Below are positions 4,053-45,227 of a DNA stretch of 45,266 nt, in pieces (within the stretch, counting starts at the first letter, position 1; each line of letters starts with the position of its first letter). The position numbers and the translations under genes were made by a program. Below the pieces are notes generated by a model. That model did not search any database and was not told the DNA's origin. It was given only the letters and a program-made list of their open reading frames with translations. This stretch comes from a virus (Duplodnaviria > Heunggongvirae > Uroviricota > Caudoviricetes). The stretch is from IMG/VR virus record IMGVR_UViG_2718217897_000001, positions 1 to 45,266 of that record; one strand, given 5' to 3'.

Positions 4053-4086
4053 TAAAAAAGCCCGCAGAGCTTGTGCTGTGCGGGCT
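4053..4086 (-). terminator. rho-independent terminator downstream of the displaced ssrA 3' fragment
   Basis: Stem agcccgca / tgcgggct with an A-run on the plus strand, which is a U-run for a minus-strand transcript. Confidence 0.5.
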
Positions 4087-4121
4087 TAGTAGACTTTACT
4101 GAACTTCAGTACATCAATATT

Positions 4122-4157
4122 TGGTGGAGCTGGCGGGAGTTGAACCCGTGTCTGAAA
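4122..4157 (-). repeat. displaced ssrA 3'-end copy; prophage attachment-site repeat (attR)
   Basis: tggtggagctggcgggagttgaacccgTgtcTgaaa matches the ssrA 3' end at 44865-44900 with 2 mismatches over ~36 nt. Confidence 0.85.
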
Positions 4158-4186
4158 AATATTAACCTGTTGTTTTAATTATATAT

Positions 4187-4966
4187 TTATCTGAACATGG
4201 CGTTTGCGGCGCTTTTGCGTATCTTCTCTAGACCTTTTGTAGTCCATTTCTCTGGTACAGGTGTAAACCGTAGTGCAAAATCTGCCTCCATATTATCACC
4301 ACTGAAACGTGCCACTCCACGTTCCAATTTTGTTTGCCAAGTGACTTTTTTAGTTTTACCCTCTATATCTTGATATTCAATAATTAATTTTGGACCAGTG
4401 AATGATGAAGAACCGACTAATTTAAGTCTATGTGAAAGATATGCTATATTCAATAGAATATCAATTGCCGCGGTTGGTACAAAAATGTTTTTTGACTTCT
4501 TATCTATACTATATGGTAACGAAAAATCAATATCGTAAGGTGTCGATAAAGTATTGTACATATATACTTTTCTTTCTTTTATTATTTTGAACATTCCATA
4601 CTGGGAGTCGGTTGTAAAAGATTTATCTTCTTTTTTGAATTTTTTCGAAAACAACTCTAAATATAGATTTATGTTTTTTTTATAATTAAAATCCCAATGA
4701 TATCTAAGTGAAATTGCCGCCCCCAATCCTATGTTTGAAAATTTTGTTTGTGGAAGCGTAGGGGCTTGTAAGATATCAACATGAAAACCGTTGAAATCGT
4801 TAACATTCATCTTGATATTTAAAGTGTCTATCACTAAATTGGGTTTATAAGAGAGCCTTCTTTGAAATATCGTTAACCATATTGCATATAATGCAGCAAT
4901 TGCTGAAATGAAAGTACCAACTGAAGATATGTAGGTGATTAGTTTGTCGAATGTAATTGTAATCAA
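4187..4966 (-). CDS. hypothetical membrane-anchored protein (cargo between attR and int)
   Basis: 259-aa ORF with a TTG start and a plausible GGGGA Shine-Dalgarno. One N-terminal hydrophobic helix (ISSVGTFISAIAALYAIWLTIF). Strongly AT-rich versus neighbours. No family recognised. Confidence 0.55.
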   Translation of the reverse strand: MITITFDKLITYISSVGTFISAIAALYAIWLTIFQRRLSYKPNLVIDTLNIKMNVNDFNGFHVDILQAPTLPQTKFSNIGLGAAISLRYHWDFNYKKNINLYLELFSKKFKKEDKSFTTDSQYGMFKIIKERKVYMYNTLSTPYDIDFSLPYSIDKKSKNIFVPTAAIDILLNIAYLSHRLKLVGSSSFTGPKLIIEYQDIEGKTKKVTWQTKLERGVARFSGDNMEADFALRFTPVPEKWTTKGLEKIRKSAANAMFR

Positions 4967-8525: not shown

Positions 8526-8888
8526 TTAATGACCTGCTGCGCGGAGTTTTCCGTCAGGTTCACCGGCAAGAGTCAGTAATTGTCCCTGGTCTTCCTGCAG
8601 AATAGTCAGGCGACCACCGCGATTGACATACATCGGCGTTTCGGTGGTGTCTTCTTCGGAAATTTTCCCGCGGTTAGTCGGGCGAACATATGAGAGTTTG
8701 TGTTTGATTTTCACACGGTTCTCATCAAATGGTTCGATTTCCAGGTTGAGTGAGACCTTACCTTTGGTTTTCGTGTTCATCACACCGGAAGCGACTTCAC
8801 TGAGAACTGCGCCGATTTTGGTTTCAAATACGCCGCCGTCCAGCTCCCCGATAAATGCCTGCACATCAGTACTGCGTTCGCTAGCCAT
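8526..8888 (-). CDS. hypothetical early protein (YfdP-like, 120 aa)
   Basis: ATG at 8888 preceded by GAGGAG. The longer track ORF to 9206 runs through a GC-rich non-coding region and is rejected. Confidence 0.5.
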   Translation of the reverse strand: MASERSTDVQAFIGELDGGVFETKIGAVLSEVASGVMNTKTKGKVSLNLEIEPFDENRVKIKHKLSYVRPTNRGKISEEDTTETPMYVNRGGRLTILQEDQGQLLTLAGEPDGKLRAAGH

Positions 8889-8899
8889 TTTGCTGCTCC

Positions 8900-9320
8900 T
8901 CATCATATCGACCCTGCAAGGCCGATTAGTTTCTCCACAAAACAGAGAAGAACACCTGCGGTAGCAGCCGCCCGGATGGATTGGGTTATGAGCCCGTCGT
9001 CCGGTGATGCTCTTCTCTGTTTTGTAAAAAGGACGGTACCAGCCGGAAGCAAGGGTACAAACTGGTACCGCCAGGACTACACACAGCATAAAGTTGTGGT
9101 GCCGGGTGCCTCCCGGTGCCTGGCGAAGGTTGCACACCAGACGGGTGGGTATCCACAGAAGGTCGACTGTCAGCCTCAACCTTAACCCGCGTGCGCTGAG
9201 CCGCATTCACCACAACGCTAAGGATTCTCTTTGGTTGAAAATACTTAGCTGTTATGTGCCTGTCTTTTCACCACTTCAGGCTCGGTGGTATCCTTTTAAG
9301 CCCGTATACATAAAAGGAAA
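8900..9320 (-). other. GC-rich structured non-coding region inside the early-left operon (candidate ncRNA, antitermination or terminator cluster)
   Basis: No credible ORF. Contains an ~18-bp inverted repeat (acaaaacagagaagaaca ... tgctcttctctgttttgt) and further GC-rich palindromic segments. Confidence 0.3.
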
Positions 9321-9325
9321 ATCAA

Positions 9326-9571
9326 ATGACTTTTGATGAAAAAGAACTTGATAATGCAATTAATAAAATCATCGTAACGTCGCTCTTTTCCTGTCTCAGC
9401 GACACTCAGCAGAAACAGTTCTACGAATCGGCTTTCAACATGATCGAGCGTTGTTGTTTCTGCGATGCCGACGAGTTACCTGAAAAAATCAGGAAACAGT
9501 TGGCTGATGCTCTTCGAGTGCGACTTTCTGACCAATTTTCTGAAATGTGCTCTCCGAATTTGGACAAATAG
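9326..9571 (+). CDS. hypothetical small acidic protein
   Basis: 81-aa ORF with a strong AAAGGA Shine-Dalgarno 8 nt upstream. Antisense to the early-left operon. Confidence 0.4.
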   Translation: MTFDEKELDNAINKIIVTSLFSCLSDTQQKQFYESAFNMIERCCFCDADELPEKIRKQLADALRVRLSDQFSEMCSPNLDK

Positions 9572-9764
9572 AAAAAGGCCATTTCCATTCAGGGTCTGAT
9601 GGAAATACTTCAGCCTGTTCCAAAGCACGGCGTAAAGAGAACACAACTCCAGCCATAATCTGATGTTTCCCATTGGTCCAGCTATCGCCGCTCTGATCTA
9701 CAGGGGCGGCTATGTCGTATGACCAAACGACTTCACAGTTATTGTTTAAAATCTGGACTTTCAT
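9489..9764 (-). CDS. hypothetical protein, first gene downstream of the OL/PL region
   Basis: ATG at 9764 with an AGGTG Shine-Dalgarno. Its 3' end overlaps the convergent ORF 9326-9571, so one of the two may be spurious. Confidence 0.35.
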   Translation of the reverse strand: MKVQILNNNCEVVWSYDIAAPVDQSGDSWTNGKHQIMAGVVFSLRRALEQAEVFPSDPEWKWPFSICPNSESTFQKIGQKVALEEHQPTVS

Positions 9765-9806
9765 TTCATACACCTGCTTTAACATGAGTGCCTGGTGGCA
9801 CAACAT

Positions 9807-9970: not shown

Positions 9971-10597
9971 TTAGAGTTCGTATTGAACTCCTTTGACTAC
10001 ACCAATGATAAGGCAATTACCATTGATAGGGATGTTGGGATACCGAGGATTTAATGGCACTAAAAACTTTTGAGGGCCATCGATGACTAATTTTTTTACT
10101 GTAGCTTCGTTTGTTCCATCAAGTCGAGCGATGACTATTTTTCCATGACGAGGTTCTGCATCTGGATCTACAATCACTGTTGCGCCTTCTGGTATTGTTG
10201 GGAGGCCATTAGGGTTAGTCATGGAGTCACCTTTAACCTCTAATGCAAATGAGTTATCACCAATCTTTAATGATGTATCTACCCACTTGTCCACTTCACT
10301 AAACACTTCTGCTGCCCTGCACTCAGTAAACTGCCCAGCCTGAACCCACGATATTACAGGAACTCTGCGCATGTTTGTGACGAGTTTGCCTTCAAACTCA
10401 GCACCATAAAGAATGTAATCTATTGACGTATTGAAGAACTTCGCTAATTTCGAAAGTGCCTCCCCACCAGGGGTATTGATGTCTTTCTCCCAGTACCCCA
10501 CAGCAACGTCGCTTACTCCACAAAATTTACCCAATTCTTTCTGGGACGTTCCGGTAACTCTTCTCAGAGCTTTTATACGCTGACCAACCGTTTCCAT
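9971..10597 (-). CDS. cI: CI-like prophage repressor (HTH N-terminus, S24/LexA-type peptidase C-terminus)
   Basis: 208 aa. N-terminal HTH (SQKELGKFCGVSDVAVGYWE) and C-terminal autocleavage-type domain (GDSM ... K). Divergent from a cro-like gene. Confidence 0.85.
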   Translation of the reverse strand: METVGQRIKALRRVTGTSQKELGKFCGVSDVAVGYWEKDINTPGGEALSKLAKFFNTSIDYILYGAEFEGKLVTNMRRVPVISWVQAGQFTECRAAEVFSEVDKWVDTSLKIGDNSFALEVKGDSMTNPNGLPTIPEGATVIVDPDAEPRHGKIVIARLDGTNEATVKKLVIDGPQKFLVPLNPRYPNIPINGNCLIIGVVKGVQYEL

Positions 10598-44864: not shown

Positions 44865-44900
44865 TGGTGGAGCTGGCGGGAGTTGAACCCGCGTCCGAAA
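44865..44900 (-). repeat. attachment-site repeat within the ssrA 3' end (attL)
   Basis: Matches 4122-4157. Confidence 0.85.
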
Positions 44901-45227
44901 TTCCTACATCCTCGGTACTACATGCTTAGTCAGTCTTTATATTCGCTTGCCAGCTGCGGACGGACACGCCACTAACAAACTAGCCTGATTAAGTTTTAAC
45001 GCTTCAACCCCAGGCAGGGCTTCCACGCGATCTCTTTTGGGTTTGACCTCTCTTGATCCCCGTCCTAAGAGCGGAGGCTAGGGAGAGAGGGCTCTAAGCA
45101 GGTTATTAAGCTGCTAAAGCGTAGTTTTCGTCGTTTGCGACTATTTTTTGCGGCTTTTTACGAGGCCAACCGCCCCTCGGCATGCACCTTGGGTTTCGCA
45201 AATCCCGTCGAATCCAGAATCAGCCCC
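44865..45227 (-). ncRNA. ssrA: tmRNA (SsrA), intact, 363 nt
   Basis: Reverse complement begins GGGGCTGATTCTGGATTCGACGGG and ends CCCGCCAGCTCCACCA. Encodes the ANDENYALAA tag region (gcaaacgacgaaaactacgctttagcagcttaa). Confidence 0.97.

Follow-up and report, generated by a model that had tools for sequence, protein, structure and literature searches.

A divergent STnc100/PasD-type RNA domain and tandem terminator-like hairpins in the early-left leader of an SfV-like prophage

The early-left operon and its non-coding gap

The window analysed here is the whole 45,266-nucleotide stretch of the IMG/VR record IMGVR_UViG_2718217897_000001. Judged by its sequence, the prophage of the window is SfV-like, and positions 8880-9330 are 99.8% identical to phage SfV. 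The prophage adjoins ssrA: the full tmRNA gene occupies 44865-45227, where the window ends on the right, and a 3' fragment of tmRNA (about 4122-4197, 18 bits) lies, with a partial IsrM match, in the stretch 4054-4197. A complete tmRNA gene with such a fragment is what typically results when a prophage integrated at ssrA has duplicated its attachment site, and the prophage would then span approximately 4.2-44.9 kb.

The early-left (PL) operon is read from the minus strand, where the features in and beside it are ordered as follows.

9971-10597, minus strand: gene of a cI-like S24/HTH repressor; its terminator precedes the PL-like promoter
9917-9889, minus strand: PL-like sigma-70 promoter, TTGCCA-17-TAGATT, just 3' of the repressor-gene terminator
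9489-9806, minus strand: ymfJ-like ORF, between the PL-like promoter and the gap
8886-8901, minus strand: Shine-Dalgarno sequence and start codon of yfdP, GAGGAGCAGCAAAAUG
8526-8888, minus strand: yfdP, the first gene behind the putative hairpin barrier described below

The gap at 8890-9325 separates yfdP from the ymfJ-like ORF and lies about 670 nt downstream of the PL-like promoter. Past the gap the minus-strand order is yfdP, yfdQ (DUF2303) and yfdR, then xis and int (SfV annotation). The position of the PL-like promoter (9917-9889) is equivalent to that of the promoter region beside the repressor genes of phages ST64B and mEp460, and the transcript with the element in it probably starts from this promoter. 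There is no N-like gene at PL, the ORFs between the repressor gene and the structured domain being without the Arg-richness of N.

On the repressor side of the gap, a plus-strand ORF (9326-9571) converges with the ymfJ-like ORF and overlaps it by 83 nt. Each matches a separate PHROG family of unknown function (phrog_3311 and phrog_3195), and only the minus-strand member is annotated in RefSeq and in the SfV record. The plus-strand ORF has a good Shine-Dalgarno sequence; no promoter was found for it. A 46-nt segment at 9249-9294 recurs with about 95% identity in several Klebsiella phages, where its flanks are unrelated.

An earlier note on this DNA had described the gap as GC-rich, highly structured and free of any credible ORF. 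The GC enrichment is real, but moderate (0.52-0.57 over 8800-9300 versus 0.38-0.49 in the flanks). Structure is pronounced on the minus strand (sense for the early-left operon), where the 436 nt fold with -175.8 kcal/mol (z -6.1, equalled by 0 of 100 shuffles); for the same 436 nt of the plus strand the values are -156.1 kcal/mol and z -3.8. The absence of a credible ORF holds as well. Two minus-strand ORFs of 75 aa (8986-9213) and 49 aa (8903-9052) have no Pfam match, the shorter one matches a small PHROG family of unknown function, and PGAP annotates a 'frameshifted hypothetical protein' over approximately 8903-9213. Reading frames are not kept across relatives because the alignment with ST64B (77% identity) contains indels of 1, 1 and 20 nt and the mEp460 counterpart has stop codons in all three frames; the note had named a conserved frame brought out by frameshift correction as grounds for refutation, and no such frame emerges. 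A frameshifted coding gene was rejected on these grounds, and the PGAP and PHROG calls are best read as ORF calls over structured RNA. ARAGORN detected no tRNA or tRNA-like gene in the element. The gap is the untranslated minus-strand leader portion of the early-left operon.

A pseudoknotted domain and its downstream hairpins

Folding and comparison with relatives divide the gap into the following elements, ordered as they would be transcribed from PL, with one plus-strand feature placed first.

9270-9289, plus strand: short hairpin followed by ATCCTTTTAA, terminator-like for antisense transcription, inside the 46-nt segment 9249-9294
9217-9249, minus strand: hairpin P0, -10.4 kcal/mol, directly upstream of the domain
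9093-9216, minus strand: structured RNA domain of 124 nt with P1, P2, P4, P5 and a pseudoknot
9216-9208 paired with 9101-9093, minus strand: P1, which closes the domain; the junction AAU is next
9204-9187, minus strand: P2 region
9183-9177, minus strand: 5' strand of the pseudoknot, AAGGUUG, whose partner is the P4 loop; variable hairpins come after it
9142-9118, minus strand: P4, whose loop CAACCUU (9132-9126) pairs with AAGGUUG
9116-9102, minus strand: P5, CCGGG[AGGCA]CCCGG
9073-9092, minus strand: single-stranded linker of 20 nt, UUUAUGCUGUGUGUAGUCCU
9024-9072, minus strand: T1, a predicted intrinsic terminator with a 13-bp stem, -20.5 kcal/mol, then CUUUUUAC (U5 tract)
8937-9025, minus strand: T2, a hairpin of 89 nt, -45.5 kcal/mol
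8924-8938, minus strand: motif before H3, GUGGAGAAACUAAUC (also written GUGGAGAAAC)
8907-8926, minus strand: H3, a small hairpin of -9.4 kcal/mol that follows T2 and precedes the yfdP ribosome-binding site

The domain has an aptamer-like form, a multi-helix junction closed by P1 with a pseudoknot and near-invariant loops; the predicted terminator T1 lies downstream. In the minimum-energy fold of the window a local hairpin competes with the pseudoknot; in ST64B this competing hairpin is broken and the pseudoknot is intact. On inspection, the aligned sequences showed no conserved pairing of the domain with T1 as an alternative. No further copy of the domain was found elsewhere in the window.

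T2 is the inverted repeat that the earlier note had put at approximately 18 bp; the repeat exists but is longer, with arms of 25 nt (8937-8961 and 9001-9025) that are 84% complementary and 39 nt apart. It has an outer stem of about 20 bp with an A-tract at its start and UGUUUUGU at its end, the predicted form that strong or bidirectional terminators typically have. Across 12 variants the outer stem persists; one change from G-C to A-U is compensatory, and one of its pairs occurs as G-U, G-C and A-U among the variants. The place of T1 is occupied by differing stem sequences in ST64B and in subtype D (subtypes are defined below), and the linker motif GUGUGNAGU recurs in subtypes A, C and D when the aligned downstream sequences are compared by eye. 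Terminator elements were among the options of the note, and T1 and T2 form such a terminator-like pair. No promoter-like site was found between T2 and yfdP.

At the gathering threshold, Rfam models identify only the tmRNA in the whole window and give no match at the gap. The Rfam/Infernal scan that the note had proposed is thus empty in its default form, but a permissive Infernal scan places STnc100 (RF02076) at 9238-9023 on the minus strand with 39.5 bits against a cut-off of 47. The note had named no RNA family; the match now found is sub-threshold, significant (E-value 5e-7 for 801 nt searched, 3e-5 for the whole window) and full-length, covering model positions 1-206 of 206. Relatives of the window domain likewise have sub-threshold STnc100 scores, of 29-41 bits.

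Viral contigs were searched with two exact-pattern scans, one for the 3' motif CACCGGGAGGCACCCGGCACCA and one for a subtype-specific 5' motif, each of which retrieved at least 120 loci. When one genome per species was scanned, the motif turned up throughout Enterobacterales, in genera that include Escherichia, Salmonella, Klebsiella, Enterobacter, Kosakonia, Raoultella, Pantoea, Erwinia and Rahnella; the few matches outside this order are probably due to chance. Hundreds of relatives have a common architecture. In all copies P1 is followed by the AAU junction, P2 (a short hairpin with GCG in its loop), the pseudoknot strand and variable hairpins, and in the 3' half by P4 (7-10 bp), a single A, P5 (CCGGG[AGGCA]CCCGG) and the 3' strand of P1. 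The 5' segment of the pseudoknot, which pairs with the P4 loop, measures 6-11 nt across copies.

The helices are retained while their sequences change. P1 occurs as GUUGUGGUG/CACCACAAC, GCAUGGUG/CACCAUGC and UGAUGCGGUG/CACCGCAUCA, and P5 has a compensatory change from CCGGG/CCCGG to CCUGG/CCAGG. The pseudoknot is AAGGUUG/CAACCUU in the window and CAGUUAA/UUAACUG, AGACUGACA/UGUCAGUCU, CCAGUC/GACUGG, AUCAGC/GCUGAU or CUGGUG/CACCGG in other copies. Plain MAFFT mis-registered P4 and the pseudoknot in subtypes C and D; helices were registered per sequence from fixed landmarks in an N-padded alignment. The 100% pairing in this alignment is by construction, a result of the landmark registration, whereas the covariation and swap controls are not circular. 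Covariation across relatives, another check proposed in the note, gave a score of 0.569 for 47 distinct sequences, versus 0.128 for shuffled alignments (0 of 500 reached the native score) and at most 0.072 when the partner strand was slid; among the same 47 sequences, 25 of 37 pairs change on both sides. Covariation is strong in P1, P4 and the pseudoknot. With the 5' strand limited to the 14 nt after P2, the pseudoknot helix has a mean length of 6.66 bp in native pairs, compared to 4.14 bp when strands are swapped between unrelated types and 4.15 +/- 0.12 bp with shuffled loops, and it reaches at least 6 bp in 85% of native versus 14% of swapped pairs. It should be noted that the search patterns force invariance of their own motif. 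The 5'-motif scan recovered P5 independently, its compensatory variant included.

G-U pairs occur in the minus-strand reading only, and the conserved entity is therefore RNA of the operon's sense strand. This bears out the structured non-coding RNA among the options of the note and lends no support to its option of a protein-binding locus in DNA. We conclude that the domain belongs, as a divergent member, to the STnc100/PasD superfamily of prophage RNAs. The element represents a pseudoknotted variant, below the Rfam cut-off, of a family already known from prophages, here in a new operon setting and with terminator hairpins in tandem behind it.

Relatives, subtypes and genomic contexts

The named relatives are STnc100, PasD1 and PasD2 of EPEC, and EcOnc27/sRNA103 of O157. 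They have the same core of P1, P2, pseudoknot, P4 and P5 as the window, share with it the near-identical motifs UGGUGAAU and CACCGGGAGGCACCCGGCACCA, carry a linker and an intrinsic terminator 3' of the core, and are all prophage-borne in Enterobacterales. The window copy likewise has the covarying core fold (P1, P4, P5 and pseudoknot) and, in T1, a predicted 3' intrinsic terminator. It differs in P2, which is GCG[GCUCAGCGCA]CGC in the window and CCCC[..GCGG.]GGGG in STnc100, and in having extra hairpins. The contexts also differ: STnc100 types are stand-alone late-region units after Q or stxB and before lysis or nanS-p genes, whereas the window copy lies in the early-left leader of the PL operon and has no promoter of its own.

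PasD1 and PasD2 have been detected by northern blot, depend on Hfq for stability and have many RIL-seq partners (PMC8550237). EcOnc27/sRNA103, located downstream of stx2B, binds Hfq and overlaps an STnc100 prediction (PMC12711010). A 2026 preprint, in its accessible portion, links PasD with STnc100 and states that the function is not established. In the accessible portions of this literature we found no placement of an STnc100/PasD member in an early-left operon and no mention of a pseudoknot in the one study that models the fold. In a literal search of the accessible literature no paper printed the conserved motif, and a search for published small-RNA data on ST64B returned nothing useful.

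The main-type STnc100 copies in our dataset follow Q, tRNA genes or stxB and precede nanS-p or holin genes. Of 35 distinct main-type upstream regions, 6 contain a near-consensus sigma-70 promoter, with the end of its -10 element 5-6 nt ahead of P1. Among 34 distinct upstream regions of the window's subtype, none has a promoter matching at 9/12 or better ahead of the domain.

The window's subtype is recognized by the 5' half GGUGAAUGCGGC(U)CAGCGCRCGCGG and has four forms, A-D. Subtypes A (SfV, ST64B), C and D lie on the same strand as a cI-like repressor gene and 200-800 nt downstream of it, and none of the ORFs between repressor gene and domain is N-like in these three subtypes. The first gene of ST64B is separated from PL by about 700 nt in which no ORF is annotated. 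After the domain, subtypes A and D have the linker, an intrinsic terminator and a second long hairpin, with stem sequences that differ between the two. Some subtype C copies are placed ahead of a moron between the portal and terminase genes. In subtype B the terminator is absent, and the domain stands at a fixed distance of about 36-41 nt before at least three different ORFs, including dicB.

The subtype B copy ahead of dicB lies directly between DicF (Rfam, 77 bits) and dicB, and the dicF-dicB spacer of the Qin prophage in E. coli K-12 is a copy of the same domain subtype (locus L348, 2453-2586; approximately 1649452-1649585 in the MG1655 sequence NC_000913). It matches STnc100 with 34.4 bits (E 6e-5), adjoins the DicF terminator on the 3' side of the latter and stops about 25 nt short of the dicB Shine-Dalgarno sequence. 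The Qin and window copies have an identical 5' half, GGUGAAUGCGGCUGAGCGCACGCGG, with covarying P1, P5 and pseudoknot, and both belong to an early-left operon under a cI-like repressor. The arrangement is reversed, however. Qin has the DicF terminator ahead of the domain, which forms the direct 5' leader of dicB and has no terminator on its own 3' side; the window has the domain ahead of a DicF-like terminator. RefSeq annotates nothing at the Qin domain, and in the accessible portion of the literature we found no description of the dicF-dicB spacer as an RNA element. [quoted passage not shown]

T1 is similar in its 5' arm and loop, UGGCGGUACCAGUUUGUACCC, to the central part of DicF, UGGCGGUAUCAGUUUUACUCC, with 18 of 21 positions matching (window 9031-9085 region), and both RNAs end in a U-tract; the DicF model (RF00039) scores 15.7 bits on the window against a cut-off of 48. 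The duplex energy of linker plus T1 with ftsZ falls within the shuffle distribution, whereas DicF beats 98% of shuffles, and DicF-like targeting of ftsZ by linker plus T1 was rejected since the complementarity is no better than that of shuffles. The motif that follows T2, GGAGAAACUA (8924-8938), resembles the ftsZ ribosome-binding site, GGAGAGAAACUA, which is the target of DicF.

Several further copies extend the range of contexts. At the same position in phage mEp460 (locus L224, 2720-2845, minus strand) the core is more divergent: P1, the AAU junction and a hairpin like P2 persist, P5 is changed to CCGG[AGAUCAGCA]CCGG, and the same T1/T2 module comes next; cores of this class were missed by both BLAST and motif scans. 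Two to three domains stand head to tail before a single terminator on the Pantoea plasmid pAPP145_2 (locus L284, 900-2150), one of them with a fully different P1. In Superficieibacter (locus L281, 6150-7150) three units, each with a terminator, lie directly upstream of a holin gene. Three members of one main-type cluster (loci L007, L032 and L100) have a second conserved segment, ..CCUGGUAAAUCGGUAGCUCGGACUAUUAGG.., at about +60 to +210 after the domain and ahead of the terminator; this segment may be a further structured domain. In phage HK639 (locus L226, 44775-44981) a main-type STnc100 unit, complete with promoter-like site and terminator, is placed between the Q and tRNA genes on one side and a holin gene on the other; no RNA is annotated for it in the phage record. 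An RNA match of another kind, to isrK (C4-type), lies in the right-hand operon of ST64B (locus L225, 5231-5307) and at 64.3 bits exceeds the Rfam cut-off.

Among complete E. coli genomes, 1813 of 5426 (about one third) carry most of the leader and approximately half carry at least part of it. The earlier note had suggested looking for conservation in CPS-53-like prophages; CPS-53 of K-12 has yfdP but lacks the element, the upstream DNA having been replaced.

Possible roles of the leader RNA

We tentatively favour a model in which PL yields a terminated RNA of the STnc100/PasD type and the T1/T2 pair also serves as a barrier before yfdP-xis-int. Upon loss of the repressor, transcription from PL would run through the ymfJ-like ORF into the domain, most polymerases would stop at T1, and T2 would act as a back-up. 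In build the released RNA would resemble STnc100, PasD and EcOnc27: a compact domain at the 5' end, then a single-stranded linker, then a terminator hairpin ending in a U-tail. A 3' end consisting of a terminator hairpin and a U-tail is the usual Hfq-binding module. The conserved linker would then be the likely pairing region, and the compact domain would shield the 5' side and may bind a partner. Only read-through of the T1/T2 barrier would carry transcription on into the delayed-early genes, from yfdP to xis and int.

We prefer a terminated RNA because the STnc100 match is full-length, the fold covaries, and stable T1 and T2 hairpins recur with differing sequences; because no promoter of 9/12 or better lies directly ahead of the domain in its subtype and no promoter-like site between T2 and yfdP; because the gap is non-coding; and because the relatives are discrete RNAs that are Hfq-dependent or Hfq-binding (PMC8550237, PMC12711010). 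Several observations argue against it. The fixed-distance, terminator-free leaders of subtype B resemble cis-acting 5'-UTR modules more than they do small-RNA genes, the complex fold with its near-invariant loops exceeds the needs of a base-pairing small RNA, the complementarity to ftsZ is no better than that of shuffles and the Rfam score is below the cut-off.

By analogy with the put RNAs, the domain could instead be a cis-acting regulator of elongation or termination, through put-like binding of polymerase or as a ligand- or protein-sensing aptamer, that would gate passage through T1/T2 into yfdP-xis-int; we regard this as somewhat unlikely. [quoted passage not shown] The window domain shares the niche of these RNAs: in lambdoid phages that lack N, it comes after PL and right before tandem terminators. 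This position, as for putL, the missing N-like gene, the ORF-free leader in ST64B, the aptamer-like form of the domain and its use by subtype B as a leader of three different ORFs are all consistent with control in cis, as is the presence of xis and int downstream with no promoter-like site behind T2. Nevertheless, the PL-PR region of HK022 has none of the domain's motifs, the annotated putL-like RNA of HK639 is unrelated in sequence and structure, and homology to the put RNAs of both phages was accordingly rejected, there being no detectable relationship. The missing alternative pairing with T1 and the position of the K-12 Qin domain, which is after and not before the DicF terminator, also count against such a regulator. 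Constitutive antitermination before lysis genes would be lethal, and some main-type relatives with their own promoter stop at their own terminator before lysis genes (PMC8550237).

Quite unlikely, in our estimation, is that the domain is a portable 5' module that stabilizes or processes whatever RNA follows it, either a small-RNA seed with its terminator or an mRNA. Such a module might give the following RNA a 5' end that is tightly folded, perhaps once a nuclease has cut a little ahead of it, or might be a decoy for a host protein. It would fit all genomic contexts: in promoter-bearing copies the spacing of the -10 element places the P1 helix at the RNA 5' end, embedded copies precede ORFs, small-RNA-like tails and moron genes, and tandem arrays of two to three domains exist. 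A simple protective hairpin, however, needs neither a pseudoknot nor invariant loop sequences, and ARAGORN finds nothing tRNA-like. A degraded or frameshifted coding gene, to which the PGAP call, the PHROG match of the 49-aa ORF and the one frame open across the whole stretch in ST64B could point, or a DNA-level protein-binding site, is very improbable given the frames that are not kept, the lack of Pfam matches, the compensatory helix substitutions and the G-U pairs on one strand only.

A broader possibility, which we also consider unlikely, is that the STnc100-type core is an unrecognized class of cis-acting structured RNA in Enterobacterales prophages and not merely the 5' part of base-pairing small RNAs. 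If so, the core would be a metabolite or protein aptamer or an RNA polymerase-binding element, it would gate delayed-early genes (yfdP-xis-int), toxic genes (dicB in K-12) and lysis cassettes, and STnc100, PasD and EcOnc27 would be the terminated products of its OFF state.

A terminated RNA from PL remains our preferred reading of the leader, which is very common in E. coli, yet a default Rfam scan is silent about it and PGAP makes a pseudogene of it. If the domain instead controls read-through or expression in cis, this would explain how terminators are passed before the recombination and excision genes in the absence of N. The interest of the element rests on its elaborate fold, its high frequency and the unannotated domain ahead of dicB in K-12. 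The superfamily link joins three groups so far considered apart, late-region small RNAs of prophages in pathogenic E. coli and Salmonella with early-left leaders of the SfV, ST64B and mEp460 type and with the dicF-dicB spacer of K-12, and this spacer provides a genetically tractable site for asking what role the conserved fold has.
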